A stretch of DNA of 40,000 nucleotides, from contig LEKJ01000061.1 in the NCBI GenBank assembly GCA_029852775.1, forward strand, positions 1-40,000, in the 5' to 3' direction. Positions within the stretch are counted from its first letter, which is position 1, and each line of letters starts with the position of its first letter. A program made the translations under genes and the position numbers. Below the pieces are notes generated by a model, which saw only the letters and a program-made list of their open reading frames with translations, did no database searches and was not told the DNA's origin. Origin of the DNA: Pasteurellaceae bacterium LFhippo2. GTDB lineage: Bacteria > Pseudomonadota > Gammaproteobacteria > Enterobacterales > Pasteurellaceae. Below, piece after piece: positions 5,789 through 39,075 of the stretch.

Positions 5789-5823
5789 TAAAAAAAATAA
5801 GGTGGGCTAAAGCCCACCCTACG
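5789..5823 (-). terminator. REP-like hairpin acting as a rho-independent terminator of fdhF
   Basis: Stem GGTGGGC (5801-5807) / GCCCACC (5812-5818) with a 4-nt loop. On the minus strand it is followed by TTATTTTTTTT and starts about 15 nt after the fdhF stop. The CGTAGGG head (minus strand) is shared with the element at 26793-26814. Confidence 0.7.
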
Positions 5824-5837
5824 TTTTATTGCGAGCA

Positions 5838-8588: not shown

Positions 8589-8597
8589 ACAATATCC

Positions 8598-9005: not shown

Positions 9006-9053
9006 ACTTACTCCTTAGTGGCTTGCAAAATCCATAGATTATCCTACCGCTTG

Positions 9054-9830: not shown

Positions 9831-9842
9831 ATCAGTTTCTCC

Positions 9843-10481: not shown

Positions 10482-10492
10482 AATCATATTCC

Positions 10493-12223
10493 CTATTTCA
10501 ACGGCGAATTTTTACGCTCAATACCGTAACGTTCAATTTCTTTGTATTCAACGGTTTTTGATTTACCTTTACGTACATCAACAACGGTTACACGGTCGGT
10601 ACAAGAATAGCAAGGGTCAAGACTACCGATAATTAATGGTGCGTCAGACACCGTATTACCACGTAGCATATATCGTAAGATTGGCCAGTTAGCATAAGTA
10701 GCAGCTCGGCAACGCCAACGGTAAAGTTTTTGGTTATTTCCTAGCATTGACCAGTGAATATCTTCTCCTCTTGGAGCTTCTGTAATTCCCAGTGCAAAAC
10801 GGCCAGGTGTGTAATTGAAACCTTCAACAAGCAGATCTCCATTTGGTAAATTATCTACCATATAATCAATAATGTTCATTGTTTCAAAAACTTCATTAAT
10901 CCTTACAGCTACGCGCCCATATACATCTCCAGTATCTGTCCAATGAGCACTAAATGGCACATCACCATAACCAGAGAAAGGATGGACTTTACGCACATCT
11001 CGGCTAAAGCCACTTGCTCTAATTAATGGGCCTACTGGACTATGATCTCTTGCAATTTGGTGATCTAAGATACCAATGTCTCTAGTTCGTTGGTCGATAT
11101 TTGGGGTATTAAGTAGAATATCCGTTAAGACTTTAACTTCCTCACGAATCTCACCAATTAACTTCATACACTGTTCGCGTTGATGTTTCAAAATATCGCG
11201 GCGTACACCACCAATAAGGTTGATACCATAAGTTTTACGCGCACCAGTAAGAACTTCAGCAAGAGTCATCGATTTTTCACGTACTCGGAAAAATTGCATA
11301 AAACCTGTATCAAATCCAGTAAAGTGACTCGATAAACCTAAATTTAGTAAATGGCTATGTAAGCGTTCTACTTCAAGTAAAATTGCACGAATCCACTCTG
11401 CTCGTTTTGGAATTTTAATTCCAAGGGCATTTTCGACTGAATTTGCGTATGCTACGCTGTGTGTGAAACCACAGATCCCACAGATACGGTCAGCTAAGAA
11501 GGTTACTTGGTCGTAGTCCATTCTTGTTTCTGCAAGTTTTTCCATACCGCGATGAACATAAAACAGACGATAGTCAGCGTCAATAATGTCCTCTCCGTCT
11601 ACAAATAGACGGAAGTGACCTGGTTCGTCAGAAGTGATGTGCAGTGGACCTAGGGGGACTACTCTCGCATCACCTTTATCATTGATAAATTCGTAAGTTT
11701 CGGTTGCTGTTGTTGGATCAGGACGTAAACGATAATCCATTGCGTCTTTGCGTAATGGGTGAAGATCGTCTGGCCAATCGTCAGGTAATACTAAACGACG
11801 TTGATCTGGCAAACCCACTGCTTTTAAGCCGAACATATCAAACATTTCACGCTCAGCCCAAACAGCAGCTTTTACTTTTGGAGTTACAGAAGGAAACTCT
11901 TGAGAAACTGGATCAACTAACGCTTTTACAATTACGAAAGATTTCACAATACCTTCCATTGAAAGTACGTAGTACACGGCAAAGTTGCCATTAATACTGC
12001 GTTCATCATTAGCAAAGGCAAGTGGTAAAAAACCTTCATGTTGGTAATAAAGATACTCCACTACGTCAGGCAACATATTGGTTTTTATCGTAATGGTTAC
12101 CTGATTTTCCGTGGACCACTCTTCATCAAGAATAGTCTCTGGAAACTTCTGATTAACGGCCTCAATGTAGTTTCGACCTAAAGCACGGCTCAAATCAACC
12201 GATGTATTTTTTGTGAATTCCAT
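10493..12223 (-). CDS. hyfG: Hydrogenase-4 [NiFe] large subunit (NuoC-NuoD fusion) HyfG/HycE
   Basis: N-terminal NuoC-like and C-terminal NuoD-like halves. Ni-binding RICGICGFTHS near the middle and C-terminal DPCYSCTDRV, followed by about 30 aa that are the expected HycI-cleaved extension. Start at ATG 12223 (MEFTKN) has a GGAGGA SD. Confidence 0.92.
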   Translation of the reverse strand: MEFTKNTSVDLSRALGRNYIEAVNQKFPETILDEEWSTENQVTITIKTNMLPDVVEYLYYQHEGFLPLAFANDERSINGNFAVYYVLSMEGIVKSFVIVKALVDPVSQEFPSVTPKVKAAVWAEREMFDMFGLKAVGLPDQRRLVLPDDWPDDLHPLRKDAMDYRLRPDPTTATETYEFINDKGDARVVPLGPLHITSDEPGHFRLFVDGEDIIDADYRLFYVHRGMEKLAETRMDYDQVTFLADRICGICGFTHSVAYANSVENALGIKIPKRAEWIRAILLEVERLHSHLLNLGLSSHFTGFDTGFMQFFRVREKSMTLAEVLTGARKTYGINLIGGVRRDILKHQREQCMKLIGEIREEVKVLTDILLNTPNIDQRTRDIGILDHQIARDHSPVGPLIRASGFSRDVRKVHPFSGYGDVPFSAHWTDTGDVYGRVAVRINEVFETMNIIDYMVDNLPNGDLLVEGFNYTPGRFALGITEAPRGEDIHWSMLGNNQKLYRWRCRAATYANWPILRYMLRGNTVSDAPLIIGSLDPCYSCTDRVTVVDVRKGKSKTVEYKEIERYGIERKNSPLK

Positions 12224-12240
12224 TTTTTCCTCCTGTCTGC

Positions 12241-13770
12241 CTATTGACCTACATTTTGCCAAGGCAATAACAACATATCGTGGAAAGACACATTATCTTG
12301 CCCTAAAATGATACCGACCGAATTTTGCAATAATTGCATAATAGGCTCTGAAATATATAAACCAATGCTTAATAACAAAATAAGGTAAATTGCGATCACA
12401 GCCACAGATGATTTACTGATTTCACCTGCTTCAATGCCTTCGGTTGGTTTGCCTAATACGGTTTTTAACAACATTGTCGTTAATCCAGCAAGGGCAATGG
12501 TTAAGAAAATTAAGCAAAGGATAGCAAGCCAAGGTTTATCTGCACTGATTGCAGCCACAATGATGGCAAACTCACTCACAAACATACCAAATGGCGGAAC
12601 GCCCCCTAGTGCTAGTGCACCACCTGCAAATAACACAGCGGTAAACGGCATTGTTTTCCACAAACCACGTACGTAAGTGATATCTCTACTGTGGTATTTC
12701 AATAAAATATTACCTGATACGCAGAACAATAATGCTTTGGCAAGACTGTGTGTAATTGTATGTAATAAACCTGCAAACATACCAATTGGTCCACCAAGCC
12801 CAAATGCGAAACTGATTAACCCCATATTTTCGATACTGTGGTAAGCCAATTTACGTTTAATATCGTGTTGCATAATGATAAAGAAAGAGGCAATTCCCGT
12901 TGATAATAATCCGAAGACCAATAGTAATACTTGGGGATAATCAAATCCAACAGCCTTGCTTGTCAGAATAAAGTAACGTACAACAATTAGCATTGCACAA
13001 TTTAAAAGCACTGCGGAGAGAATCGCACTGGCAGGACTAGGAGCCTCACTATGCGCATCTGGTAACCAAGTATGCATTGGGAATAAACCACATTTTGTAC
13101 CAAAGCCAATTACAATAAATGCAAATGCAAGATACATAAGATTATGATTGAGGTTTACTGCTTGTTCATTGATGACTGACCAGAAGATAGCTTGAGACGG
13201 ATCCGCTAATACAGTATTTGCACTTGAGAATGTTAATACTGTTCCATATAAACCAAACGCTACACCTACAGAACAGATAATGATATATTTCCAAGCAGCT
13301 TCTAGAGATGTACGTCTACCGTATAAACCAACTAAGAAAGCTGGTGCTAATGTTGTTGCTTCAATCGCTACCCACATAAAAATAATATTGTTAGTTGTAG
13401 CTGCCAACATCATTGATCCAAAGAATAAGTGGAGAAAACCATGGTAAAAGCTAAAACTTCTTAAATCTATGTGTCCTTCTTTTAACTCAGTTTCCATATA
13501 TCCGATGGAATAAACACCTGCTAAAGTACCAACGATACCGATTAAGCCAACAAAAATTGCTGATAGGCTATCGATATAGACCCAATTACTCCAAGCAATT
13601 ACAACATTTTCATCAAGAACTTGATTAATCACAACAAAAGTCGCAAATGCCATCAATCCTAAACCAGTAATATGCAACGATTTGCAAAGTTGGAGATTTT
13701 GAAGTCTTGCTGCAACAAAGCAACCGATACCAACCACAAAGGGCATTAATAACAAAATATTAATCCACAT
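12241..13770 (-). CDS. hyfF: Hydrogenase-4 antiporter-like membrane subunit HyfF (NuoN/M-like)
   Basis: 509-aa polytopic protein with Mrp/NuoLMN-family motifs (WLPDAHSEAPSPASA, KRKLAYHSIENMG). Its position after hyfE matches the E. coli hyf order. Confidence 0.85.
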   Translation of the reverse strand: MWINILLLMPFVVGIGCFVAARLQNLQLCKSLHITGLGLMAFATFVVINQVLDENVVIAWSNWVYIDSLSAIFVGLIGIVGTLAGVYSIGYMETELKEGHIDLRSFSFYHGFLHLFFGSMMLAATTNNIIFMWVAIEATTLAPAFLVGLYGRRTSLEAAWKYIIICSVGVAFGLYGTVLTFSSANTVLADPSQAIFWSVINEQAVNLNHNLMYLAFAFIVIGFGTKCGLFPMHTWLPDAHSEAPSPASAILSAVLLNCAMLIVVRYFILTSKAVGFDYPQVLLLVFGLLSTGIASFFIIMQHDIKRKLAYHSIENMGLISFAFGLGGPIGMFAGLLHTITHSLAKALLFCVSGNILLKYHSRDITYVRGLWKTMPFTAVLFAGGALALGGVPPFGMFVSEFAIIVAAISADKPWLAILCLIFLTIALAGLTTMLLKTVLGKPTEGIEAGEISKSSVAVIAIYLILLLSIGLYISEPIMQLLQNSVGIILGQDNVSFHDMLLLPWQNVGQ

Positions 13771-13773
13771 AAA

Positions 13774-14412
13774 TTACCCCCGTAATTCCATTAATTGTTT
13801 CGCATCTAGCGTATGTAGGGCTCGGTAAATTTTATTTACAAGTACGACCATAATAATCACCGCAAAAACAGCATCTGTTGCAATACCAATCTCCACAAGT
13901 TCTGGAGCTTTATTAGCAAGCAATGCTAGGGTTAGATGTGAACCATTTTCCATTAAGCAGTAACCAAAAACTTGTTTCACAATATTACGTTGCGTCACAA
14001 TACAGGTTAAACCTAATAAGAAGTGCCCTAATGACACTGATAATGCAGGTTTGAGATTATCTGCAATCGGCAATTCTACTGAATCAGTCGCTAAGAAACT
14101 CACTACCACAATAGCTGCTACAATCGGAATCAACCACACATTATTCATCGTAGATGGTACAGTGCTTTCATCTAATTTACGCGTTGCATAAATCAAAAGT
14201 GCAGGTACTAATACCACTTTGGTAATAAAAGCTGAAACTGACCACATATAGAGTTCATGAGCGTCTAATGCACTAGCTAAATAGAAGAATAGCGATACCA
14301 GCACCAAAGATTGTAACGCATACAAACCTGCTGCACTTTTTGCAGTTTTCACTGCGATTACCGCAAGAGATGTGAGAATCAACAAGCCCGCTAAAGTATT
14401 AATCATTAACAT
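13774..14412 (-). CDS. hyfE: Hydrogenase-4 membrane subunit HyfE (NuoK-like repeat)
   Basis: 212 aa, hydrophobic. GYCLMENGSHL and PELVEIGIATDA match remembered HyfE. Confidence 0.85.
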   Translation of the reverse strand: MLMINTLAGLLILTSLAVIAVKTAKSAAGLYALQSLVLVSLFFYLASALDAHELYMWSVSAFITKVVLVPALLIYATRKLDESTVPSTMNNVWLIPIVAAIVVVSFLATDSVELPIADNLKPALSVSLGHFLLGLTCIVTQRNIVKQVFGYCLMENGSHLTLALLANKAPELVEIGIATDAVFAVIIMVVLVNKIYRALHTLDAKQLMELRG

Positions 14413-14424
14413 AATTCGTTCTCC

Positions 14425-15882
14425 CTACGCTAACCATGGCGTTTCAAGCCAATAAGCCGCGATAAAACTTGAACAAACGGACATAATCATCAAGATCACT
14501 AACACAATATTCATTGAAAGTGTCAGTGGCTGTGCATTTTCCACATCTTCTGATGGTTTACCTACCACACATTGTCCGAATTTATAGAGCAACCAAACAA
14601 AAGTTGCTGTACTTTCAATTAATGCGATTACCATCAACCATGTGATCCAACTATGCTGTTGGCCAAGCTCAAAACCTGCTGCAAAAAGTGGGAACTTACT
14701 AAAGAAACCATTAAATGGTGGCACACCAGAAATTGCGAGAGCTGCAACCCCAAAACCGGCCCCCAATAGTGGCATTTTACGCATAATGCCTTGTAATCTT
14801 GGCATTGAACGCGTACCCGTTGCATAAGCAAGAGAACCTGCAACTAAGAAGAATAGACTTTTCGCGAAAGCGTGGTTGAAGATATAGGCAATGGCAGCGA
14901 TCAATGCAAGTTTAGAGCCCATTGCAAAGAGAGATAAACCAATGAAGATATAAGCGAGTTGAGTAATGGTGGAATAAGCAAGTAACCGTTTAAGATCGGT
15001 TTGTGGCAAGTACATAAGGAAGCCATAAACTAAGGTTATCATTGCCATAATAATACCAACTTCACCGACAATTTCTGGTACTTCACCTGCTGATATAACT
15101 GCTCGAGCAAAGATATATACCCCAACTTTTACCATAGATGCTGCGTGTAGATACGCACTCACAGGGGTTGGTGCTTCCATCGCATTTGGTAGCCAAATTT
15201 GCATTGGGAATTGAGCCGATTTACCCCAAGCGGCAAACATAACTCCAAATAACACAATCATTTTTGAAGTTGGATCGAGTTTTTCTAATGCGGTTAACTC
15301 AAACGTACCTGATTGGCTAAATAAATACGCCGCAGCAAGATATAAACCAATGGCACCAACATGGGTGATAATCAATGCTTTCATTGCAGATGCTTGCGCT
15401 TTTGGTGTTTGATAATAGCTAATCAAAGACCAAGAACACGCCCCTGTAATTTCAAAGAACAGTAACTGCCCCACTAAGGTTGAGGAATATACCAAGCCAG
15501 CCATTGCCCCAACGAAAATGAGTAAAAATGCGTAGAAGCGTGGAAGTGGTAAGTGGGAATGTTCTTTATTTTTGGTTGTTAAATATCCTTCAGAATAAAG
15601 AATTATTAAAAAGCCAAGAGCCACTACAACAAAACCGATTAGGGTACTTACGGCGTCAAAGGTAAAGCTGAAGATCGTCGTGTTGCCAAATTGAACTAAA
15701 CTAAAGTTAAGTTGTGCTTGTCCGGATTGTTGCCACAAAAATGCTACAGCAACGGTTCCTAATGTGGCAACAGCAGCAATAATTGTCGCAATTTTTGGAA
15801 ACATCTCTTCGTTTTTCACAAACCCTACGAGAAACGCCCCCACAAACGGCAATATAATTGTAAATAGAGCTAAATTATCCAT
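14425..15882 (-). CDS. hyfD: Hydrogenase-4 antiporter-like membrane subunit HyfD (NuoM/N-like)
   Basis: MDNLALFTIILPFVGA start. WLPNAMEAPTPVSAYLHAASMVKVGVY and GVPPFNGFFSKFPLFAAGF match HyfD. Confidence 0.85.
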   Translation of the reverse strand: MDNLALFTIILPFVGAFLVGFVKNEEMFPKIATIIAAVATLGTVAVAFLWQQSGQAQLNFSLVQFGNTTIFSFTFDAVSTLIGFVVVALGFLIILYSEGYLTTKNKEHSHLPLPRFYAFLLIFVGAMAGLVYSSTLVGQLLFFEITGACSWSLISYYQTPKAQASAMKALIITHVGAIGLYLAAAYLFSQSGTFELTALEKLDPTSKMIVLFGVMFAAWGKSAQFPMQIWLPNAMEAPTPVSAYLHAASMVKVGVYIFARAVISAGEVPEIVGEVGIIMAMITLVYGFLMYLPQTDLKRLLAYSTITQLAYIFIGLSLFAMGSKLALIAAIAYIFNHAFAKSLFFLVAGSLAYATGTRSMPRLQGIMRKMPLLGAGFGVAALAISGVPPFNGFFSKFPLFAAGFELGQQHSWITWLMVIALIESTATFVWLLYKFGQCVVGKPSEDVENAQPLTLSMNIVLVILMIMSVCSSFIAAYWLETPWLA

Positions 15883-15892
15883 TTTTTCCTCC

Positions 15893-16855
15893 TTACAATC
15901 CGATTAAGTAAAAGACAAAGGCAAGTACAGACACACCGAAACCAACACTTGTTAAACGTCCTGCCAACATAAATCGGACACGAGAGAGAGTATTTTCAAA
16001 TACACAAGCTGCCACAAATACAATGAACAATTTAATGAAGAATGTAATAATTCCCCAAAGAATTGAACCAAATGTTAGTTCAGCTGCAGCACCAAACGGT
16101 AATAACACACTGACAAATACTGATGCGACAACCATTGATTTCAAGCTTAATCCAACTTTAATAAGTGCAAATGCTGGACCTGAATACTCTGTTAATGGGC
16201 CTTCTTGTAACTCTTGCTCTGCTTCTGCCAAGTCGAACGGAATTTTTCCCATTTCCACGAAAATAGCAAACATTGCGGCTACCATCGCAACGAGAGTTGC
16301 TACAGGGTAATTCCAAGATTGTGTTGCTAATGCACTTGAGATCATACCGAAGTTGGTTGAACCAGCAGCTAATGCGATAACAAGCAGAGAAAGCATTAAA
16401 ACAGGTTCCACTAATACCCCTAGAGTCACCTCACGGCTTGCCCCCAAACCTGAAAAAGAGCTGTTACTGTCAAGGCCTGCAATAGAGAAGAAGAAACGGA
16501 ATAAGGCGAAAAGATAAATTGCGGTAATCAAATCACCACCTGCACCGAATGGAGATGCCAAGGTGAACATTGGTAAGCTCATTGCCACAACAAGAACGGT
16601 GCTAATCAACACATAAGGCATCACTTTTGAGACAAAGCTCGCATTGTCAGGCAGAATGTTTTGGCGTTTCATTAATTTCGCAATATCGCGATAATCTTGT
16701 AAAACACCAGGTCCTCGACGAGATTGCACTCTCGCACGAATCATTCTTGAAATACCCGAAAATAAAGGAGCAAGAGCAAGCAGAATTAACGCCTGAATAA
16801 TCCCTAGTAAAAACATACCTGCTGATGTTGCAATTTCTGAAGGTAAATTAATCAT
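15893..16855 (-). CDS. hyfC: Hydrogenase-4 membrane subunit HyfC/HycD (NuoH-like)
   Basis: 320 aa. RMIRARVQSRRGPGVLQDYRDI and PFDLAEAEQELQEGPLTEYSG are NuoH/HycD signatures. Confidence 0.9.
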   Translation of the reverse strand: MINLPSEIATSAGMFLLGIIQALILLALAPLFSGISRMIRARVQSRRGPGVLQDYRDIAKLMKRQNILPDNASFVSKVMPYVLISTVLVVAMSLPMFTLASPFGAGGDLITAIYLFALFRFFFSIAGLDSNSSFSGLGASREVTLGVLVEPVLMLSLLVIALAAGSTNFGMISSALATQSWNYPVATLVAMVAAMFAIFVEMGKIPFDLAEAEQELQEGPLTEYSGPAFALIKVGLSLKSMVVASVFVSVLLPFGAAAELTFGSILWGIITFFIKLFIVFVAACVFENTLSRVRFMLAGRLTSVGFGVSVLAFVFYLIGL

Positions 16856-16864
16856 AACAGCCTC

Positions 16865-18883
16865 CTACATTGAACCAGCAACCGCTAATAACACAACAAG
16901 GGCAATCGCGAAATAAACGCAATACACTCGGAAATCACCACCTTGTAACCAGCTTAATTTCTCTGAAATCCAAGGGATAAAACGTGCTATTGGCATTGTT
17001 ACTTTATCTTCCCAAATCGGTTCGACTTCAGTTGCACCTTTAATTGTTTTATCAATCGCTTTATAGCTTAATGGTGCAGGGTCAAATGTTTTGCGGATGG
17101 TATAAAGTGGTTTGAACATAATACGAAGCGGTTTGGTAAAACTACCTGCGCTTGTAGCCATTTCAGGTTCATAAGCGTAACCACACGCCCATGGATTGCC
17201 TTTTGAATTTGCTTCGAGACGATTCGATTTCGTCATCACATAATAGCCAAATGGTACAGCGAAGAAGGCAATTAGCATAATTGCTACCATTGATGTAGAA
17301 AGCGCGGTATTTGGTTCTGAGTTTGCAACCACTACCCCGTTTTGTGCTAATTCAAAGCCTGCTAAACCAGAAAGAGACGTTGATACATTTGCAATAATTG
17401 GTGTGATAACTGTTGCGCCAATACCTAATAAAACACAACACACAGCAAGAATTGCCATTGCAGCGACCATTGGTTTTGGCACTTCTCTTGCATTGGCTGC
17501 TTTTTCACTACGTGGTGCACCGCCAAAACTAATACCATATACTTTCACAAAACAGAGTGCAGCTAACGCACCAGTTAAAGCAAGCATAATGATTGCAACG
17601 GCACCTAAAATTTTTAACGCAATGCCACCATCTTGAGTTAGGCTAAAGAGAGATTGATAGGTAAACCATTCACTCACAAATCCATTGAAAGGAGGAAGTG
17701 CAGAAATTGCCATGGTACCGATCAAGAAACACAAAGCGGTATATGGCATTAATTTACCAAGTCCCCCCATATGATCCATATCTTTGGTGTGTAAACGATA
17801 CATTACAGAACCAGCACCTAAGAATAACAATCCTTTGAACACGGCATGGTTAAGTAAGTGATATAAGCCACCAAGTAAACCAACAATAGCAAGCACTGGA
17901 TTTTTAATAGCAATACCAATCATGCCGCAGCCCACGCCCATCATAATAATGCCGATATTTTCAACGGTGTGGTAGGCTAACAAACGTTTAATGTCATGCT
18001 CTGCTAACGCATAAAGTACGCCAAGCACAGAAGATACTGCACCAAATCCAAGCACAACAACACCAAACCAAATACTATTTGCGCCTAAAAGATCGATCCC
18101 AACTTTAATGATCCCGAAAATACCAATTTTAACCATTACACCAGACATCAATGCAGAAGCATGAGACGGTGCCGCAGGGTGAGCTTTCGGAAGCCAGCCA
18201 TGTAATGGAATCATCCCTGCTTTAGCACCAAAGCCAAGGAATGCAAGAATAAATACAACAAAACTTAACGCTGGAGATAACTCTGTTTGGCGGTAGGCTG
18301 AAAATTCAAAGCTACCTGCGTAGCAGTAGAAAATGAAGAAAGAGATCATAATGAGCACAGAACCTGCGTGGGCAATAAAGAAATAAAGTAGCCCAGCGTT
18401 CGTTGCTTCATCATCTTGTTCGGTTAACACTAAGAAATAGGACGCCAAAGACATCATTTCAAAGAAAACCAGAAAATAAAATGCACTGTCAGTTGTTGCT
18501 AGAGCAACCATAGAGCCTATGAATAGATTCATAAAAAAGCCCATAGAGCCAGCACCTTTGCCTTTATACTCTTTAACATAGGCAAAGGAATAAATTGCAG
18601 TAACAACTACTAAGAGAGAAATTACGCAGACCATAAACGCGGCTAGTCCATCAATTCGCATAGAATATGGTGCAAATGAAAATGGGGTCTGAAATAATGC
18701 AGTCGCGGTTTCGTTGCTGATAAGGACAGGGGCGGCAGCTATAATGCCTAATGCTCCACCAAGGATACTGGTCACGCCAGATATATTGATTGAAAGCTGT
18801 TCATTCTTACTAATACAAAGCGAAAGAAATGCGCCGATGACATAAATCAACAAGGTCATAATGAGTAAGGGTATCGCACTCAT
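16865..18883 (-). CDS. hyfB: Hydrogenase-4 antiporter-like membrane subunit HyfB (NuoL-like)
   Basis: Start chosen at ATG 18883 (MSAIPLL) with GGAG 7 nt upstream, giving 672 aa (my recollection of the E. coli HyfB length). The track start at 18907 is a TTG. WLPKAHPAAPSHASALMSGVMVK and KRLLAYHTVENIG motifs are present. Confidence 0.88.
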   Translation of the reverse strand: MSAIPLLIMTLLIYVIGAFLSLCISKNEQLSINISGVTSILGGALGIIAAAPVLISNETATALFQTPFSFAPYSMRIDGLAAFMVCVISLLVVVTAIYSFAYVKEYKGKGAGSMGFFMNLFIGSMVALATTDSAFYFLVFFEMMSLASYFLVLTEQDDEATNAGLLYFFIAHAGSVLIMISFFIFYCYAGSFEFSAYRQTELSPALSFVVFILAFLGFGAKAGMIPLHGWLPKAHPAAPSHASALMSGVMVKIGIFGIIKVGIDLLGANSIWFGVVVLGFGAVSSVLGVLYALAEHDIKRLLAYHTVENIGIIMMGVGCGMIGIAIKNPVLAIVGLLGGLYHLLNHAVFKGLLFLGAGSVMYRLHTKDMDHMGGLGKLMPYTALCFLIGTMAISALPPFNGFVSEWFTYQSLFSLTQDGGIALKILGAVAIIMLALTGALAALCFVKVYGISFGGAPRSEKAANAREVPKPMVAAMAILAVCCVLLGIGATVITPIIANVSTSLSGLAGFELAQNGVVVANSEPNTALSTSMVAIMLIAFFAVPFGYYVMTKSNRLEANSKGNPWACGYAYEPEMATSAGSFTKPLRIMFKPLYTIRKTFDPAPLSYKAIDKTIKGATEVEPIWEDKVTMPIARFIPWISEKLSWLQGGDFRVYCVYFAIALVVLLAVAGSM

Positions 18884-18914
18884 AATGTACTCCATTTGAT
18901 TATTCAATTAAATT

Positions 18915-19514
18915 TTAGCGTGGAATTGCAGGAGAATTCATCATTGCCATCTCACGTTTTCGTTTATTTGCTTGTTCGATACTTTCATCACTAATGATAA
19001 ATAAGGTTTTCGTTGGACACGTTTGCACACAAGCAGGACCTTCAGGACGGAAGTAACATAAATCACATTTAATTGCTATTGCTTTGACACCTGGTTGCCA
19101 AGCTAGCATATCATTGAGATTACTATTATCAGGAGACACACGAACATCTCGACTTACAGCGTCGGTAAATGTGAAATGCTCATAATAAGTTGGAGAATCA
19201 ATAGGCCCACTACCATGTTGAGAGATTGCTCCGAATGGGCAAGCAATGCCACATAATTTGCAACCAATGCATAGGCTTTCATTAAGTTGAATAGTGTCAT
19301 CTTTATGCGTGATCGCATTGACTGGGCAAACAGTCGCACAAGGCGAATCATCACAGTGACGACAAAGAATCGGTACAGTAACATCGTCGTTACGCATTAC
19401 TTGTAACCGAGGAAAAGATTGTAATCCAAAGGCTTTATGTGTTTCACTACAAGCTGCCATACAAGTATTGCAGCCAATACAGTCTTTGGGATCACCTATA
19501 ACAAATCGGTTCAT
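18915..19514 (-). CDS. hyfA: Hydrogenase-4 multi-[4Fe-4S] ferredoxin subunit HyfA/HycB
   Basis: MNRFVIGDPKDCIGCNTCMAAC start, plus three further CxxCxxCxxxCP-type clusters (CRHCDDSPC...CP, CIGCKLCGIACP, CDLC...CVQTCP). Confidence 0.9.
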   Translation of the reverse strand: MNRFVIGDPKDCIGCNTCMAACSETHKAFGLQSFPRLQVMRNDDVTVPILCRHCDDSPCATVCPVNAITHKDDTIQLNESLCIGCKLCGIACPFGAISQHGSGPIDSPTYYEHFTFTDAVSRDVRVSPDNSNLNDMLAWQPGVKAIAIKCDLCYFRPEGPACVQTCPTKTLFIISDESIEQANKRKREMAMMNSPAIPR

Positions 19515-19626
19515 AACTAACCCCCACTAGAAATACTACTAATATAAGACATGAAAGAGATATCCTTTCGGGACGTAAGAATACTGCTAAATAAATGAAA
19601 CTTTAAAGACGTAAATTTGAACTTTT

Positions 19627-19640
19627 TTGATTGAGATCAG
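19627..19640. promoter_or_regulatory. FNR-like box centred in the hyfA/hypC divergent region
   Basis: TTGAT-TGAG-ATCAG matches 9/10 of TTGAT-N4-ATCAA, about 120 bp from both the hyfA ATG (19514) and the hypC ATG (19752). A TAAAGT -10-like hexamer (minus strand, 19600-19605) would place the box near -40.5 for hyfA. Confidence 0.5.
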
Positions 19641-19751
19641 CAAAAAATTTCTTTTTAGATTAATTTATTTAAAATTGGACTATTATCGGTGCCTGTAATT
19701 CCTTTGTAAAATCACATAGTTAAGAATAATTTTCATTTACAGGAGGTGGAT

Positions 19752-20021
19752 ATGTGTCTCGGTGTCCCTGGACAAATTGTCCAAATAAAAGATACAGCGA
19801 CAGCAATTGTTGATGTGTGTGGTGTGCAACGTGAAGTAAATATTTCACTTGTTCACGAAAATAACCCAGATAGCTTATTGCAAAAGTGGGTGTTGGTACA
19901 TGTTGGTTTTGCAATGAGTATTGTTGACGAAGCAGAAGCATTAGAAACAAAAGAAGCATTGATCGCTATGAGCCAGCTAGAACATGAAGTAGGAGATTTC
20001 TTGGGCTTAAATCAAAAATAA
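19752..20021 (+). CDS. hypC: Hydrogenase maturation chaperone HypC/HybG family
   Basis: Translation from ATG 19752 begins MCLGVPGQIV. The essential Cys2 requires this start, so the track's upstream GTG is rejected. AGGAGG SD at 19741-19746. 89 aa. Confidence 0.92.
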   Translation: MCLGVPGQIVQIKDTATAIVDVCGVQREVNISLVHENNPDSLLQKWVLVHVGFAMSIVDEAEALETKEALIAMSQLEHEVGDFLGLNQK

Positions 20022-20034
20022 GCTTAATATAAGG

Positions 20035-22323
20035 ATGGCAAGGATGAGATTTATCGAACTAAGAATCAAAGGTAAAGTTCAGGGAGTTGGATTTAGACCA
20101 TTTGTTTGGCTATTAGCAAAAGATCTGCAACTCAAAGGAGACGTCAATAATGATGGACAAGGTGTTTTAGTTCGCTTGCAGTCTCCAAGTGATACACAGC
20201 TTACTCAATTCCTTCTGGATTTAAATGCAAAGCTACCGCCACTTGCTAAAATTACTGATATTCAGCAATCTGAAACCTTTCTTACTGATTTTCCTACATT
20301 TAATGAATTTGTAATTCGTGAAAGCGAAAATAGTCTAATGGATACCCAAATCGTGCCAGATGCTGCAACTTGTCCAGCGTGCCTTGCAGAATTATTCACC
20401 CCGAGTAATCGCCGTTTCCACTACCCTTTTACAAATTGTACTCACTGTGGCCCTCGCTTTACCATTATTTATGCGATTCCCTATGATCGCAAAAATACGT
20501 CAATGGCAAATTTCAAATTCTGCCCCGAATGTCATAAAGAATATAAAGATCCTGCAGATCGTCGATTTCACGCACAGCCTAATGCTTGCCCAGTTTGTGG
20601 GCCTCACATTTGGTTACAAGATAAAACAAATCAACTTGCAACACTCGAAACCGCATTAACTCAAAGCGCACAGCTACTTGTTCAGGGCAATATAATTGCA
20701 GTGAAAGGATTAGGTGGATTTCATTTAGCGTGCGATGCAACAAATGCTAATTCTGTAAATTTATTACGTAAGCGAAAATACCGTCCCACAAAACCTCTTG
20801 CCGTAATGGTTCCTAATTTAACTTATTTGGTTGATTTAACAGAACAAGAAAAACAATTATTGACTAGTAGCGCAGCGCCAATAGTGTTATTAAAAAAGCA
20901 TAAAGCCCCAACATTGTGTGCTGAAATTGCCCCTAACTTATCAGAAATTGGTGTAATGTTACCTAGTAATCCATTGCAACATTTGCTACTAAATGAGATA
21001 AATCGACCGCTTGTAATGACTTCTGCAAATCCAAGTGGTGAGCCTCCCGTTTTAGATAACCAAACTGCTATGGATAAGCTACATTCTCTTGCGGATTTTT
21101 ACCTTTTCCATAATAGAGATATTTTGCAACGCGCTGATGATAGCTTAGTGCGAGCAGCTTTTGATGGCATAGAAACACTACGAAGAGCAAGGGGATATGT
21201 ACCTGATGAGATCAGCCTTGATCTTGATAACCAACAGCCAATTTTGGCATTAGGTTCTGATCTTAAAAATACATTTTGTCTACTCAAAGGTAATAATGCT
21301 GTCGTTAGCCAACATATTGGTGATACCTCAAACCTACAAGTACAAACACAATTACAGGATAATATCCAACTCTTTCAACAAATTTATCAATTTAAACCAA
21401 ATCATATTGTTGTGGATGCTCATTCAGGCTATTTTAGTTCTCAAGTTGGTAGACAACTTGCTATGCAACAGCAGTTACAGCTCCATCAAGTACTTCATCA
21501 TCATTCCCACATTGCAGCAGTCTTAGCAGAACATCATTGTGATGAAAAAGTAATTGGCATTGCATTAGATGGTATCGGAATGGGAGAAAATGGCCAACTT
21601 TGGGGGGGAGAATGTTTATTAATTAATAAATATCATTGCCAACATTTGGGGGGACTGCCTCCTGTAGCGTTGGCTGGCGGGGATTTAGCTGCTAAGCAAC
21701 CTTGGCGAAATTGGCTTGCGCATATTCAACAATTTGTTCCAAACTGGCAAGAGCTTGCGACAAAAACGTTAAAAGAATTTGAGTGGCAACTACTTGCTCG
21801 GGCAATTGAACAGAAGATAAATTCACCCGTAATCTCTTCTGCGGGTAGATTTTTTGATGCGGTTGCATATTCTTTGGGCATTACGCCAAAGCAGTTAAGC
21901 TGGGAAGGGGAAGCCGCCTGTCATTTAGAAACATTGGCTAGTCAATCTAAATGGGTAGAAAAAAATATCCAAGATATTCAGAAAGAGCTAGATGTAACAA
22001 TGCCGATCCATAATGATCAGTTTGATCTTGCTATTTTCTGGCAATCTTGGCTTAACCTAGATGACTCAATTGAGAATAAAGCATTCGCTTTTCACTTTAC
22101 TTTGGCTACAGCCTTTGCTGGAATGGCCAAAATCAATGCAAAAAAATACAACTGTCAGACAATTGTACTTTCAGGTGGGGTTATGCATAACCAATTATTA
22201 CGTCGATTATTGAAAGAAAGTCTTTCCGAATTTAACGTTCTAAGTGGTCAACAATATCCAATGAATGATGGCGGATTAAGTTTAGGACAAAGTTGGATTA
22301 TTGGACAATATCTAGAGATGTAA
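20035..22323 (+). CDS. hypF: Carbamoyltransferase HypF
   Basis: Acylphosphatase-like N-domain (KGKVQGVGFRPFVW), two zinc fingers (CPACLAEL...CTHCGPRF; CPECHKEY...CPVCGP), and YrdC-like and Kae1-like domains. The alternative start ATG 20044 has better SD spacing. Confidence 0.93.
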   Translation: MARMRFIELRIKGKVQGVGFRPFVWLLAKDLQLKGDVNNDGQGVLVRLQSPSDTQLTQFLLDLNAKLPPLAKITDIQQSETFLTDFPTFNEFVIRESENSLMDTQIVPDAATCPACLAELFTPSNRRFHYPFTNCTHCGPRFTIIYAIPYDRKNTSMANFKFCPECHKEYKDPADRRFHAQPNACPVCGPHIWLQDKTNQLATLETALTQSAQLLVQGNIIAVKGLGGFHLACDATNANSVNLLRKRKYRPTKPLAVMVPNLTYLVDLTEQEKQLLTSSAAPIVLLKKHKAPTLCAEIAPNLSEIGVMLPSNPLQHLLLNEINRPLVMTSANPSGEPPVLDNQTAMDKLHSLADFYLFHNRDILQRADDSLVRAAFDGIETLRRARGYVPDEISLDLDNQQPILALGSDLKNTFCLLKGNNAVVSQHIGDTSNLQVQTQLQDNIQLFQQIYQFKPNHIVVDAHSGYFSSQVGRQLAMQQQLQLHQVLHHHSHIAAVLAEHHCDEKVIGIALDGIGMGENGQLWGGECLLINKYHCQHLGGLPPVALAGGDLAAKQPWRNWLAHIQQFVPNWQELATKTLKEFEWQLLARAIEQKINSPVISSAGRFFDAVAYSLGITPKQLSWEGEAACHLETLASQSKWVEKNIQDIQKELDVTMPIHNDQFDLAIFWQSWLNLDDSIENKAFAFHFTLATAFAGMAKINAKKYNCQTIVLSGGVMHNQLLRRLLKESLSEFNVLSGQQYPMNDGGLSLGQSWIIGQYLEM
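21006..21014 (-). repeat. Apl-type USS (ACAAGCGGT, extended ACAAGCGGTC)
   Basis: Exact 9-mer on the minus strand, inside hypF. Confidence 0.7.
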
Positions 22324-33375: not shown

Positions 33376-33513
33376 TAAAAAATCCTATCCAAAATAATAA
33401 GGGACGAATTTTATCACAATTCGATAGCGATGACGACGAACCATTTGTCGATAAGGTCGATACAGTGTAGAATGTCGTGTTATTTTTATATTAAAACGAG
33501 AATATCAGAAACT

Positions 33514-35193
33514 ATGAGCAACGAGAATTTAGAAACAGCAGTTGCGCACGACGATGTACGTGCGAACTTTATTACCCATATTATTGATGAAGATTTAAAA
33601 AGCGGTAAACACAATAACGTTTACACTCGTTTCCCGCCTGAGCCAAACGGCTATTTACATATTGGCCACGCAAAATCAATCTGTTTAAACTTCGGTTTAG
33701 CGGAACAGTACAATGGCTTATGTAATCTACGTTTTGATGATACTAACCCTGTTAAAGAAGATGTGGAATATGTGGACTCAATCAAACAAGACGTTGAATG
33801 GTTAGGCTTCAAATGGGAAGGTGAGCCACGCTATGCATCTGACTATTTCGATCAACTTTATGGTTATGCCATTGAGTTAATCGAAAAAGGTTTAGCTTAT
33901 GTATGTGAATTAACGCCTGACGAAATGCGTGAATACCGTGGTACATTAACAGAACCAGGTAAAAACAGTCCATACCGTGATCGCACTGTAGAAGAGAACT
34001 TAGCGCTTTTCCAAAAAATGAAAAATGGTGAAGTGGAAGAAGGTAAAATGAGCCTTCGTGCAAAAATCGATATGGCTTCGCCATTTATGGTAATGCGCGA
34101 TCCAGTGATCTACCGTATCAAATTTGCGACTCACCACCAAACAGGCGATAAATGGTGTATCTACCCTATGTACGATTTCACTCACTGTATTTCAGATGCG
34201 ATTGAGCGTATTACTCACTCAATTTGTACATTAGAGTTCCAAGATAACCGTCGTTTATATGACTGGGTGTTAGAAAATATCTCGATTGAACGTCCATTAC
34301 CGCATCAGTACGAATTTTCTCGCTTAAATTTAGAAGGCACATTAACTTCTAAACGTAAGTTATTAAAATTAGTGGAAGACAAAATCGTTGATGGTTGGAA
34401 TGACCCACGTATGCCTACAATTTCTGGTTTACGTCGTCGTGGTTATACCCCTGAATCGTTACGTGAATTTGCACGTCGTATCGGTGTAACCAAACAAGAT
34501 AACGTTGTGGAATATAGCGCATTAGAAGCCTGTATCCGCGAAGATTTAAACACCAATGCACCACGTGCAATGGCGGTGTTAAACCCAGTTAAAGTGGTGA
34601 TTGAAAACTTTGAAGGCGAAGAGATCTTAACTGCGCCAAATCACCCAAATCGTGAAGATTTAGGTACTCGCGAGTTACCTTTCACTCGTGAACTCTATAT
34701 TGATGAAGCAGATTTCCGTGAAGAAGCAAACAAACAATATAAACGTTTAGTATTAGGTAAAGAAGTGCGTTTACGTAACGCTTATGTGATTAAAGCAGAA
34801 CGTGTTGAGAAAGATGCAAGCGGTAAGATTACTACAATTTTTTGCACATACGATCCTGAAACATTAGGTAAAAACCCTGCTGATGGTCGTAAGGTGAAAG
34901 GCGTTATTCATTGGGTTTCGGCAACGAATAACAAAGCTGCTGAATTTCGTGTTTATGACCGTTTATTCACTGTGCCAAATCCTGGTGCCGCTGAAGATAT
35001 TGCTGAAGTATTAAATCCAGCTTCTTTAGTCGTTAAACATGGTTTTGTTGAAGCAAGTTTAGTGAATGCAAAAGCAGAACAAGGTTACCAATTTGAGCGT
35101 GAAGGCTACTACTGCTTAGATAGCAAAGATGGTTCTAAAGATAACCTAGTGTTTAACTTAACGGTAAGTTTAAAAGAAGGCTTTACAGCTTAA
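33514..35193 (+). CDS. glnS: Glutamine--tRNA ligase
   Basis: Start at ATG 33514 (MSNENLE). HIGH motif ([13 protein letters not shown]), a KMSKS-equivalent region (LTSKRKL), and full-length GlnRS similarity. The track's 28 upstream codons were discarded. Confidence 0.95.
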
Positions 35194-35206
35194 CTGTATT
35201 ATTTAA

Positions 35207-35237
35207 AGGTATTGTTTTATCACAATACCTTTTTTTT
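35207..35237 (+). terminator. Rho-independent terminator of glnS
   Basis: Perfect 9-bp stem AGGTATTGT / ACAATACCT with a 6-nt loop, followed by a T-run of 7-8. Confidence 0.75.
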
Positions 35238-35262
35238 ATCTGTATTTTAGTAAGGAATCTAT

Positions 35263-36657
35263 ATGACTAATACTCAAAGACCTTATTGGTTTGTTGGCGC
35301 ATCTTATGGTGGAAATGATGACCAAACCGATCTATTTGTTACTCAAGGCATCTGGAATCATGGGAAAGATGATATAAATACTTGTAATAGTGTTTTAAAT
35401 ATGAAAGTCGGGGATAAAATAGCAATTAAGTCAGTTTTTACACAAAAATATGATTTACCTTTTGATAACCCCAAAAACCATACATACTCTGTTCTCAGAA
35501 TTAAAGCTATAGGTACGATAGTTGGAGAAAGTCTTGATAATGGCTACTCTATCAAGGTAGATTGGCAGAAAGATTTTGAACCTAAAAACTGGTATCACTA
35601 TGTATATCAAGGAACTATTTGGCTAGTTAATCCTAATCGAACAGATAGCGAATCTTGGAAAGCAAAAGCGTTAATTGATTTTACATTTAATAATAAACCG
35701 CAAGATTTTAGTTTATTTACTAATAATGGAAGTATAGCTGATAATGAAGATGTAGCTTTTACAACTACAGTAAAAACTATAGATTACACCATTGCAAATA
35801 TTCAACAAGATGGCTGCTTTTTAGAACAGAAGCAACTTGAAGATATTCTATTTCACCTGAAATTTAAAAAAAATCTTATTTTACAAGGAGCGCCAGGTAC
35901 AGGAAAAACTTGGCTTGCAAAAAGACTTGCTTATGCAATTATTCAGCAAAAGGACTCAAGTAAAGTCAAAGCAGTACAATTTCATCCTAATCTCTCTTAT
36001 GAAGATTTTGTTCGTGGCTGGCGACCAAACGGAGATGGTAAACTATCTCTTCAGGATGGCTCACTGATGGAAATAACTAAAAAGGCACTTAATGATCCTA
36101 ATACAAATTATGTTCTTGTTATTGAAGAAATTAATCGTGGCAATCCTGCTCAAATATTTGGCGAAATGCTAACATTATTAGAATCAGATAAGCGTAATCC
36201 TGAAAGCGCTCTGGAATTAGCATATAAAGTTAATGAATATGAACGTATCTACCTACCCAATAATTTATATATCATTGGCACAATGAATATTGCAGATCGC
36301 TCATTAGCTTTAGTAGACTTTGCATTGCGACGACGTTTTTCTTTTGTTGAATTGGAACCAAATTTTAGTAATAAATGGCAAAATTGGCTTAAAGAAAAAT
36401 TTCACTTTGATGATAATTTTATCAAGAAGATTCACTCAAGAATTCTTCAAGTAAATGAACAAATCTGTCAAGAATTAGGAGATCAATTTAGAATTGGGCA
36501 CAGCTATTTCACGCCGCCAGAAAATTGTGAAATTCAGCCTGAGATATGGTTTAAACAAGTGGTTCAGAATGAAATTATCCCTTTACTGAATGAATATTGG
36601 TTTGATAGTCCTGAGAAGGCTCAACAGGTCGCAAATTTATTAATAGAGAATAGATAA
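35263..36657 (+). CDS. mcrB: McrB-family AAA+ GTPase subunit of a type IV (modification-dependent) restriction system, with a non-canonical N-terminal domain
   Basis: Walker A GAPGTGKT (35887-35910), VLVIEEINRGNPAQIFGE, the McrB signature IIGTMNIADRSLALVDFALRRRFSF, and FRIGHSYF. Residues from about 173 onward align in my memory with the E. coli McrB GTPase module. Residues 1 to about 135 do not resemble the E. coli McrB N-domain. Confidence 0.88.
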   Translation: MTNTQRPYWFVGASYGGNDDQTDLFVTQGIWNHGKDDINTCNSVLNMKVGDKIAIKSVFTQKYDLPFDNPKNHTYSVLRIKAIGTIVGESLDNGYSIKVDWQKDFEPKNWYHYVYQGTIWLVNPNRTDSESWKAKALIDFTFNNKPQDFSLFTNNGSIADNEDVAFTTTVKTIDYTIANIQQDGCFLEQKQLEDILFHLKFKKNLILQGAPGTGKTWLAKRLAYAIIQQKDSSKVKAVQFHPNLSYEDFVRGWRPNGDGKLSLQDGSLMEITKKALNDPNTNYVLVIEEINRGNPAQIFGEMLTLLESDKRNPESALELAYKVNEYERIYLPNNLYIIGTMNIADRSLALVDFALRRRFSFVELEPNFSNKWQNWLKEKFHFDDNFIKKIHSRILQVNEQICQELGDQFRIGHSYFTPPENCEIQPEIWFKQVVQNEIIPLLNEYWFDSPEKAQQVANLLIENR

Positions 36658-37712
36658 TGTCTGCCCAAATTCCTGTTCAAAATATTTGGCTTTTGATGTT
36701 GTATGCATCAGAACTATTCCAAACGATACAAGAAAATCAAAATGTTACTATTGAAGATAATCCTGACAACATTCCTGATTTAGTTGCTGAAATTCTCTGT
36801 TACCAAGTAGAAAAACGTCTTAAACGTCAATTAAATTATGGGTATCAATATAAATCAGCACAACTAACAAGAGTTCGTGGGCGTATTAATTTACGAGAAA
36901 CAGAAACTAAAAAGTTACTCAGCAAAGGACGAATTGCTTGTAAATTTGAAGAACTGAATTGGAATACATCACGAAATTGTTTTGTAAAAATAGCTCTGGA
37001 GAAATTAAGTAAAATCGTTTCTAATCCGCTTTCTCACCGTTGTCGATTACTAACTAACAAATTTAATCAATTGGGTATTACTGGAGACATTCGAAATTAT
37101 AACCCAATGAGAGATACTTTCTGTCGCAATGATATCATTGATAAAGAAATGGTTATTACAGCTCACTTAGCCTTACAATTAGCATTACCGACTGAGCAAA
37201 ATGGCAAGTATTTATTATTAAAGCCTGATAATAATATTGATTGGTTACGTAAGTTGTATGAAAAGGCTATCGCAGGGTTTTATCAGGTACTACTGTCTTC
37301 ACAAGGTTGGGAAATAAAAACTGGAAAACGTTCAAGATGGCAAGTGTCGAAACAAAGTAGCGGAATCTTAGATATTTTACCGACAATGCAGACAGATATT
37401 GAATTAATCAATCTGAAGCAACAAAAGCACATTATTATTGATACTAAATTCAATGAAATCCTTATTTCGGGTAATTATAGAGAAAAAAGTTTACGCAGTG
37501 GCTATGTTTACCAAATGTATGCCTATTTACATTCTCAACAGAGAGACTGTTCAGCTATTGGAATTATTCTACATCCTATGTTTGGTGAACCACTAAGTGA
37601 ATATGCTATTATTCAACAGCATAAAATGCAATTTTCAACGGTTAACTTACAAGCTACAGCGATTGAAATCCGTCAACAGCTGTTAGATATTATTAACAAT
37701 GCCTTAAGCTAG
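36657..37712 (+). CDS. mcrC: McrC-family PD-(D/E)xK endonuclease subunit
   Basis: N-terminus IPVQNIWLLMLYA (compare E. coli McrC IPVRNIYYMLTYA), the catalytic region LPTMQTDIEL...IIIDTKF (D247, D262-x-K264; nt 37395-37448), and YVYQMYAYL. The ATG overlaps the mcrB TAA (TAATG). Confidence 0.88.
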   Translation: MSAQIPVQNIWLLMLYASELFQTIQENQNVTIEDNPDNIPDLVAEILCYQVEKRLKRQLNYGYQYKSAQLTRVRGRINLRETETKKLLSKGRIACKFEELNWNTSRNCFVKIALEKLSKIVSNPLSHRCRLLTNKFNQLGITGDIRNYNPMRDTFCRNDIIDKEMVITAHLALQLALPTEQNGKYLLLKPDNNIDWLRKLYEKAIAGFYQVLLSSQGWEIKTGKRSRWQVSKQSSGILDILPTMQTDIELINLKQQKHIIIDTKFNEILISGNYREKSLRSGYVYQMYAYLHSQQRDCSAIGIILHPMFGEPLSEYAIIQQHKMQFSTVNLQATAIEIRQQLLDIINNALS

Positions 37713-37727
37713 TTTGCAAAAGATATG

Positions 37728-37757
37728 AAAAAACCGACCGGTTGTGGTCGGTTTTTT
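37728..37757. terminator. Bidirectional rho-independent terminator between mcrC and argA
   Basis: A6, CCGACC (37734-37739), 6-nt loop, GGTCGG (37746-37751), T6. It serves both convergent genes. Confidence 0.8.
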
Positions 37758-37767
37758 GTTTCTTATT

Positions 37768-39075
37768 TTATAACGGTAGAATAAGTACCTTAGAGCGGCG
37801 CTGATAATTATAGTTATCACGTTTATACTTCGGTAAATCTTCTGCTTCTGCAAGCTCAAAGCCACGTTCTTGGAACCACTGTGTTGTACGAGTTGTTAAT
37901 ACAAATAGCTTTTCCATTCCTAAATTACGTGCACGCTTCTTAATTTCTGTAAGTAACACATCGCCGCGTGAAGAATCTCTATAATCAGGATGAACCGCAA
38001 CGCACGCCATTTCTGCCATTTTTTCATCGTCATAAGGATATAATGCAGCACAAGCAATGATGACACCGTCACGCTCTATAATCATATAGTGAGAGATTTC
38101 CATCTCTAACTGCTCTCTTGAACGGCGAACTAAAATACCCTGTTGTTCTAACGGTCGAATCAATTCTAATAAGCCAGGAATATCCTGAACAGTCGCAATG
38201 CGGTTTACTTCTGACTCTTCGATAGATACCTGTGTACCAATACCATCACGCGAGAATAGTTCTTGTAACAATGCTCCATCCTCTTGATAACTAATCAAAT
38301 GCGCACGTTTTACTCCTGAACGACACACATCGGCCGCCGCTTGCAAGAAACGTGATTTGGCAGTGTGGTACTCCCCTTTCTCAATAAATTGGTTAAGGTA
38401 GTTTTGTGCTTCTTGCGGTTGAAGATCGGCAATAACTTCACCATTTTCATTTAAAACACCTTGTTCAGCACAAAAACCGATTAATTTATCCGCTTTTAAA
38501 CGAATTGCGATTTGAGTCGCAATCTCTTCAAAAGGCAGATTAAACATTTCTCCTGTAACAGAAGGTGCTATCGGCCCCATTAATACCACTGCATTACGAT
38601 CTAATTGATCTTTAATTCCGTCAATATTGATTCTACGGATCTTCCCTGTTAACGCGTAATCTACACCATCAACCACACCGATAGGTTGCGCCAAAATAAA
38701 ATTACTACTAATTACATCCATAACAGGTGCATTTGAATGGCGTAGAGATAAGCGAGCAAATAGATCGTAATGAACACGACCAACGGCCTGTTTCACGATA
38801 TCTAGCGCTTCTGACGTTGTAATACGGATATTATTATAATATTCAGATTGGTGCTTATTTTGGGCGAGAAGTTGATTGATTTGTGGGCGAGCGCCGAAGA
38901 TGATAACAAGTTTGATCCCAAGGCTATGGAGAAGATTTATATCGTTGATGATATTACTTAGATTCGGACTTTCTACTACTTCGCCATCAAGCATAATGAC
39001 GAATGTTTTTTCCCTATGTAAATTAACATAAGGCGTAGATTGTCTAAACCATTGGACTAGTTCTGTGTTGCGCAT
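37768..39075 (-). CDS. argA: Amino-acid N-acetyltransferase (N-acetylglutamate synthase)
   Basis: [18 protein letters not shown] start, an amino-acid-kinase-like N-domain, and a C-terminal GNAT domain ([15 protein letters not shown]), typical of ArgA. Confidence 0.92.

Follow-up and report, generated by a model that had tools for sequence, protein, structure and literature searches.

Which target does a McrB protein recognize when the DNA-binding domain of its Escherichia coli counterpart is missing? The question is raised by a gene at positions 35263–36657 (+) in a stretch of 40,000 nucleotides from Pasteurellaceae bacterium LFhippo2 (GenBank assembly GCA_029852775.1, contig LEKJ01000061.1, positions 1–40,000), hereafter referred to as the window. 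This open reading frame (ORF) encodes a McrB of 464 amino acids and is directly followed by mcrC. The product is identical to GenBank MDH2998573.1 from the same organism, which is named 'hypothetical protein' and forms a singleton in an exact-sequence cluster look-up. In a McrBC system, the choice of what is attacked lies with the N-terminal domain. The explanation that best fits the evidence, and that is likely correct as a whole, is a two-gene Type IV (modification-dependent) McrBC restriction system, in which a PUA-superfamily domain of the EVE/YTH type replaces the SRA-like DUF3578 domain of E. coli at the same junction on an E. coli-type McrB motor.

Exchange of the N-terminal domain on an E. 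coli-type motor

For the N-terminal part of the window McrB, the initial annotation noted that the features of the E. coli DNA-binding domain are lacking, and the searches agree. MrcB_N/DUF3578 (PF12102) is unmatched in a Pfam search of the protein, and E. coli McrB aligns with it only from E. coli residue 161 on. On two other proteins with the window-type domain, PF12102 does match (2e-38 and 7e-35), in a position upstream of that domain. Profile search and alignment both indicate that the absence of an E. coli-type DNA-binding domain is real. Residues 1–172 also lack a significant match, to the canonical DUF3578 or otherwise, in Pfam, NCBIfam, PADLOC and PDB sequences, and a profile of 65 family members found no solved relative in the PDB. 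Hits to DUF3048_C, PglX, streptodornase and a designed armadillo repeat in these searches were dismissed as noise.

The remainder of the protein is of the E. coli type. Pfam AAA_5 matches residues 204–359 (E = 3e-27), and residues 161–456 of the solved E. coli McrB structures (6hz4, 6ut6, and 7vsr) align with window residues 168–461 at E values of about 1e-73 (1.3e-73 for 6ut6). In the NCBIfam McrB equivalog NF008457, only residues 167–461 align, to model positions 160–456. The resulting 257 bits fall below the cut-off of 637 because the N-terminal domain differs from that of E. coli. The swap junction falls where the E. coli DNA-binding domain ends (residue ~160). Walker A, Walker B, and the MNIADRS loop are all intact, and the protein has the features of a McrB GTPase (AAA+ branch, AAA_5) under published motif definitions (PMC11090510; bioRxiv 10.64898/2026.08.31.748284). 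The downstream ORF (36657–37712) is identified as McrC by its matches to the NCBIfam equivalog NF007277 (345.6 bits, above the cut-off of 338), PF10117 (E = 4e-20), and chain 6hz4_M (E = 5e-17); within it, D247...D262-x-K264 is a candidate nuclease motif. The parts of the two genes are as follows.

35263–36657, + strand: mcrB ORF, 464 amino acids (Pfam, NCBIfam, and PDB sequence matches)
35278–35727, + strand: predicted EVE/YTH-like (PUA-superfamily) N-terminal domain, residues ~6–155 (family search, alignment, AlphaFold2, Foldseek, and published EVE set)
35728–35763, + strand: linker, poorly conserved and of lower model confidence, residues ~156–167 (AlphaFold2 predicted local distance difference test, pLDDT, and end of the homologue alignment)
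35764–36645, + strand: E. coli-type McrB N-linker and AAA+ GTPase module, residues 168–461 (6ut6, NF008457, and AAA_5)
35887–35910, + strand: Walker A, GAPGTGKT, residues 209–216
36115–36138, + strand: Walker B region, LVIEEINR, residues 285–292
36283–36303, + strand: McrB signature loop MNIADRS, which includes the NxxD GTPase motif, residues 341–347
36657–37712, + strand: mcrC ORF, 351 amino acids, with an ATG that overlaps the mcrB stop by one base (TAATG)
37392–37448, + strand: candidate PD-(D/E)xK nuclease motif in McrC, TD247-I ... I-D262-T-K264 (from the family pattern rather than a residue-level alignment)

Family and fold of the domain

Sequence comparison indicates that the N-terminal region is a real, conserved, widespread, and McrB-linked domain family. 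A phmmer search against 1.84 billion cluster representatives (clusters at 50% identity) returned 778 proteins at E ≤ 1e-3 and 497 at E ≤ 1e-10, matched over query residues ~5–155. This exhaustive HMMER search superseded a word-index homologue search that had found only 8 relatives. In species-representative genomes, at least 392 loci were confirmed by tblastn (with a 9-sequence alignment as query), and these belong to Proteobacteria, Chloroflexota, Planctomycetota, Bacteroidota, Acidobacteriota, Nitrospirota, Cyanobacteria, Spirochaetia, and others. A McrB-type AAA+ module lies downstream of the domain in 112 of 156 representatives, and 40 of the remaining ones are too short to judge. Among 80 fetched loci, most have a gene for McrC right after the McrB gene, usually with an E value of about 1e-100 to the window McrC.

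The conserved and confidently folded unit spans residues ~6–155. The homologue alignment stops at about residue 155, and residues ~156–167 form a low-confidence linker. The end of the domain, initially placed near residue 135, was moved to ~155 because the helices at 131–142 and 150–153 belong to it. Across 65 members, W31, F67, A82, G84, W101, W110, and Q147 are invariant, and W9, V11, G12, D20, F25, G29, G50, I53, I55, K56, and P66 are nearly so. Weak Pfam matches to Ribosomal_L21e in seven of the 65 (best E = 7e-4, under any cut-off) were read as a common 'GDxIxIK' strand motif and not as homology.

Three architectures are found in the family. The compact one, with the domain directly on the motor, accounts for 68 of the 112 representatives with a motor, including the window protein and Methylovulum WP_019866537.1. 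In the long form (~735 amino acids in total), the domain is followed by an uncharacterized region of ~290 amino acids and then the motor. One cluster of such proteins has 96 members, among them entries annotated from Vibrio cholerae, V. parahaemolyticus, and Cycloclasticus zancles and a UniRef entry from Providencia stuartii; the name given to these is 'AAA family ATPase' or 'McrB family protein'. In the third architecture, the other modification readers MrcB_N and Mrr_N come first, followed by the domain and a more distant McrB motor.

Several further observations concern these relatives. The middle region of the long form occurs in locus L041 (residues ~160–445; 4938–7175), in L046, and in most of loci L001–L080. 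It carries the motifs RFRNAPYWxERFG, ICPFTxxGxFNRG, and GLYWIRPW, is absent from the window protein, and has no match in Pfam or PDB sequences. The family PF28527, recorded among precomputed annotations for family member P0007, is probably not the domain studied here because the N-terminal stretch of P0007 resembles the end of the long-form middle region; as a guess, PF28527 and that region may be the same. Two McrB homologues of ~1000 amino acids have tandem copies of the domain, adjacent in P0009 (338–492 and 508–666) and ~240 residues apart in P0010 (126–276 and 519–679), and the first copy in each is divergent (~34% identical to the window domain). In P0008 (177 amino acids), a family member is cut off after strand 3 and runs into an IS200-type Y1 transposase (PF01797), which looks like the disruption of a mcrB gene by an insertion sequence. 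In a metagenome-assembled genome from Spirochaetia (L031), the McrB ORF (4941–6683) ends in a match to 60 residues of the McrC N-terminus and McrC resumes after 1.6 kb (8299–9264), suggesting an insertion within mcrC.

The initial annotation proposed a PUA-like reader of EVE or ASCH type from the order of short motifs, all of which are present in the translation: PYWFVGASYGG (residues 7–17), GIWNHG (29–34), MKVGDKIAIKS (47–57), LRIKAIGTIVGE (78–89), IKVDWQKDF (97–105), and TIWLV (118–122). Structure prediction and comparison, the checks it had called for, favor the EVE-like part of this proposal, within EVE/YTH taken together. With the 65-sequence alignment, AlphaFold2 gave a confident model of the window domain (pLDDT 89.9; predicted template modelling score 0.83). 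Its elements are a strand at 8–12, a helix at 22–28, a strand at 30–32, and a helix at 38–45, followed by strands at 52–61, 75–91, 96–101, 108–111, and 119–122 and the two C-terminal helices. In blocks of ten residues from residue 151 on, the pLDDT is 67, 47, and 60, and only residues 163–171 lie under 50. A second model was made for the first copy in P0009, the most divergent paralogous copy available (34% identical; pLDDT 93.0). For both models, DSSP assigns the order beta-alpha-beta-alpha, then five strands, then C-terminal helices. The start and the subsequent run of strands agree with the published EVE order, except that the latter has four strands in the run (Bell et al., 2020; PMC7641849). 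The position of an extra strand beside beta1 sets EVE apart from YTH and ASCH.

Foldseek comparison of the window model with the PDB gave three matches at E ≤ 1e-3, all of them EVE structures. PH1033 (1wmm/2hd9) has an E value of 6e-4, a probability of 1.00, and a template modelling (TM) score of 0.40–0.48, and MJECL36 (2p5d) has an E value of 7e-4 and a TM score of up to 0.50. Ranks 4–11 (E = 0.02–0.12) are likewise all EVE or YTH, and include Rpa0253, YTHDC2, AtCPSF30-YTH, Atu2648, PSPTO5229 (2eve), the Thermococcus gammatolerans McrB N-domain on DNA (6p0g), and THYN1 on 5-methylcytosine (5mC) DNA; unrelated folds are mixed in from rank 12. For the model of the P0009 copy, all 50 best PDB matches are EVE or YTH, including VcaM4I (6yex), with a best E value of 1e-4 and TM scores of 0.44–0.52 among the top matches. 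YTH structures are abundant, especially for this second model, but rank below PH1033. Among the top 50 matches of each model, none is described as ASCH, SRA, strict PUA, DUF3578, or B3, and a Foldseek search of viral structures (BFVD) gave nothing at E ≤ 1e-3. The stand-alone EVE proteins PH1033 and MJECL36 are the nearest structural neighbors of the two models (E = 1e-4 to 7e-4, probability 1.00); unlike the window McrB, they are single-domain archaeal proteins, and they are 13–18% identical with TM scores of 0.40–0.50.

The models most likely assign the domain to EVE/YTH as a whole, a clade within the PUA superfamily; prokaryotic YTH-like and EVE domains are hard to tell apart (PMC7641849). 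The ASCH part of the initial proposal was given up, as neither a Pfam ASCH match nor an ASCH structure among the top 50 Foldseek matches of either model was found. An SH3/KOW-like barrel (no structural matches) and an LptE-like fold (Foldseek probability ≤ 0.15) were also rejected. A new McrB sensor module, which the initial annotation offered as its alternative, is not supported.

An independent link to EVE comes from the published census of these domains (Bell, Wolf & Koonin, 2020, BMC Biol 18:159; PMC7641849). Its EVE set (Additional file 2) contains residues 1–115 of Idiomarina AVJ57063.1, which is 44% identical to the window domain (E = 7e-27); the family has thus already been swept into the published EVE census. 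EVE-McrB is the commonest EVE defense architecture in that census, often with additional domains. The published fusions resemble the window system in having an N-terminal EVE-like domain on a McrB GTPase with McrC downstream, and in both families further reader domains are commonly combined. The window subfamily differs in that Pfam EVE does not detect it and in having a conserved LPFD insertion and two conserved C-terminal helices, and the entry for AVJ57063.1 delimits only the first 115 residues. A recent review and a structural preprint on LlaI likewise deal with McrB homologues that carry YTH or EVE domains. These comparisons support the view that the window McrB is an unannotated member of the known EVE-McrB kind, in a divergent subfamily missed by current Pfam models.

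Several results weigh against this assignment or against a modified-base reader. Pfam EVE (PF01878) has no match in the window protein at E ≤ 10 or in 65 family members at E ≤ 1, and the Pfam YTH and ASCH models have none in the query and 64 relatives. Profile comparison with hhalign gave a probability of 0.8% against four housekeeping EVE sequences (from PDB alignments) and a weak 17% against 26 diverse EVE sequences from the Bell et al. file (P = 1.5e-3 local and 3e-4 global); each time the aligned core was the equivalent segment of helix 2, MxxGD turn, strand 3, and strand 4. The structural likeness is remote (TM 0.41–0.52, root-mean-square deviation ~6–7.5 Å, 7–18% identity). Relative to EVE, the conserved 'QKxDLPFDN' loop between strands 3 and 4, which contains the LPFD motif, is an insertion, and the EVE loop that bears pocket residue Y82 of 2eve has no counterpart in the family, so a pocket, if any, would be built differently from that of EVE. 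The N-terminal domain is not obviously basic (isoelectric point 6.3). In the long forms, the middle region could be the main DNA binder. Finally, the literature yielded no experimental work on this subfamily.

Possible target and mechanism

The most likely mechanism is drawn by analogy from E. coli and T. gammatolerans McrBC and from the EVE domain of VcaM4I. Six EVE-like domains, tied to the McrB hexamer by a flexible linker of ~12 residues, would scan incoming DNA, and each may flip a modified base into a hydrophobic pocket lined by Trp and Phe. Candidate pocket residues are the invariant W31, F67, W101, and W110, together with the conserved post-beta1 loop G12-A13-x5-D19-D20-Q21-T22. Binding of the modified site would anchor the complex, GTP hydrolysis stimulated by McrC would power DNA translocation, and the PD-(D/E)xK nuclease of McrC would cut the DNA. 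The analysis shows the domain swap, the family, the fold class, the intact GTPase motifs, and the identity of McrC; base flipping, the pocket residues, and DNA rather than RNA as the target are what we infer.

Among characterized systems, E. coli K-12 McrBC (6hz4 and 6ut6) has the same N-linker, GTPase, signature loop, McrC partner, and operon layout as the window system, but its whole DNA-binding domain (E. coli residues 1–160; 3ssc-type DUF3578) is exchanged for an unrelated fold in the window protein. The target specificity of the E. coli enzyme is therefore not transferable. The YTH domain of T. gammatolerans McrB (6p0f/6p0g; Hosford et al., 2020), which prefers N6-methyladenine (m6A) DNA, is a parallel in that a PUA-superfamily reader takes the place of DUF3578 on a canonical McrB. 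However, its structural match to the window model is weak (E = 0.096, TM 0.35) and there is no sequence similarity. The EVE-HNH endonuclease VcaM4I (6yex; PMC7897488), which matches the model of the P0009 copy, has an EVE sensor within a modification-dependent restriction enzyme and flips 5mC or 5-hydroxymethylcytosine (5hmC) into a hydrophobic pocket. Unlike the window system, it has a fused nuclease, does not need nucleoside triphosphates, and lacks an AAA+ motor, and its pocket residues P24, W82, and Y130 have no demonstrated counterparts in the window domain.

The domain may instead bind DNA without reading a modified base, its target being a particular sequence, a structural feature of DNA, or DNA of any kind. 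Some relatives of McrB do read unmodified sites, LlaJI with its B3 domain being one (PMC12707154), and the family does not conserve the loop that bears the pocket in canonical EVE. Such an outcome is nevertheless unlikely, given that every characterized EVE or YTH domain considered here binds modified bases and that the invariant Trp/Phe set is typical of a base cage. Moreover, a system cutting unmodified DNA would need a methyltransferase for self-protection, and the lack of any methyltransferase gene adjoining the cassette in the window, where the neighbors are glnS and an argA-like gene, counts against it.

EVE and YTH domains are known chiefly for reading RNA, and YTH domains that bind m6A RNA are numerous among the best structural matches. 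RNA-targeting derivatives of McrBC (CoCoNuTs) have also been proposed (PMC11090510), which makes a modified base in RNA, read by an RNA-directed McrBC-like system, an alternative to consider. The motor and McrC of the window are close to E. coli McrBC, however, which is a DNA enzyme. The NxxD motif has the canonical form, unlike the NxD of the CoCoNuT clade, and the Pfam search found no coiled-coil, cold-shock, or HEPN parts. An RNA target is quite improbable on these grounds.

A third explanation would make the domain a regulatory, autoinhibitory, or assembly module of the McrB hexamer, with the target chosen elsewhere. The EVE domain of VcaM4I also blocks the nuclease (PMC7897488), and in many homologues of the window protein the ~290-residue region parts the domain from the motor, or readers of the DUF3578 or Mrr_N type precede the domain. 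For the window protein and the other compact representatives, however, the domain is the only module directly before the N-linker. McrC is unable to bind DNA stably alone, so that a DNA-binding element is needed, for which the N-terminal domain is the only candidate; a purely regulatory role is very improbable.

That the EVE/YTH likeness is convergent or an artefact of predicted models, and the domain a new fold class, is hardly probable at all: TM scores do not exceed 0.52, sequence and profile searches gave no significant link, and both AlphaFold2 models rest on overlapping alignments, but two different sequences return EVE/YTH throughout their top ranks (the second for all 50), the order of elements and the segment matched locally by hhalign are equivalent, and the independent PSI-BLAST/HHpred census put a family member among EVE domains.

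For the preferred reading, a modified-base reader of the EVE/YTH type, the identity of the base may be considered further. In hosts such as V. cholerae, Dam methylates adenine and VchM cytosine in the cell's own DNA, and many carriers of the domain use Dam. It is speculation, but this self-methylation hints at a target other than plain m6A of the Dam type or 5mC of the RmC type. It is possible, if somewhat doubtful, that a pocket formed by the LPFD loop and the Trp-rich set reads a modification other than 5mC/5hmC or m6A, for example a hypermodified phage base. Such a specificity could explain the presence of proteins annotated from V. cholerae and other Gammaproteobacteria in the 96-member long-form cluster.

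Members of this large reader family currently carry no label more specific than 'AAA family ATPase', 'McrB family protein', or 'hypothetical protein', and the Pfam EVE and YTH models miss the domain. An EVE/YTH-type fold would give these proteins a testable function and candidate pocket residues, and the compact form of 464 amino acids, with the domain directly on an E. coli-type motor, is suited to biochemical tests of specificity or to domain-swap engineering. Because EVE- and YTH-McrB fusions have already been described, the current picture of Type IV restriction is unchanged.

Genomic setting and other genes in the window

The mcrBC cassette is bounded on both sides by terminator-like hairpins, and the following features flank or precede its genes.

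35205–35232, + strand: terminator-like hairpin 3' of glnS, intrinsic type, with an 11-pair stem followed by the T-run TTTTTTAT; sets mcrBC apart from the upstream gene
35252–35257, + strand: Shine-Dalgarno-like AAGGAA, 5 nt 5' of the mcrB ATG, read from the sequence
37728–37757, no strand assigned: bidirectional terminator-like hairpin between mcrC and the convergent argA-like gene

The guanine-plus-cytosine (GC) content of the cassette (window positions 35100–37800) is 32–34%, compared with 38–45% in the flanking glnS, uvrB, and argA-like genes. The low GC content and the terminators on both sides are consistent with a small acquired island. The closest relative of the domain in species-representative genomes is 52% identical, and no close copy of the cassette is found there. 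The cassette is probably a small horizontally acquired unit between glnS and the argA-like gene, and it looks like a strain-variable insertion at this place.

Elsewhere in the window, an fdhF-like gene for formate dehydrogenase H (5838–7991, −) has an in-frame TGA at 7572–7574 (codon 140) within the motif CCARV*HGPSV, the position of the selenocysteine codon in E. coli FdhF. Owing to this TGA, the ORF list splits the gene into 7572–7991 and 5838–7523. A cluster of the hydrogenase-4/formate-hydrogenlyase type at 8133–22323 includes a Complex1 49/30 kDa-NiFe large subunit and three Proton_antipo_M subunits, with hypF at 20035–22323, and ackA is located at 57–1319. The listed glnS ORF (33430–35193) begins 28 codons before the likely true start (MSNENLE...), and the extension looks non-coding.

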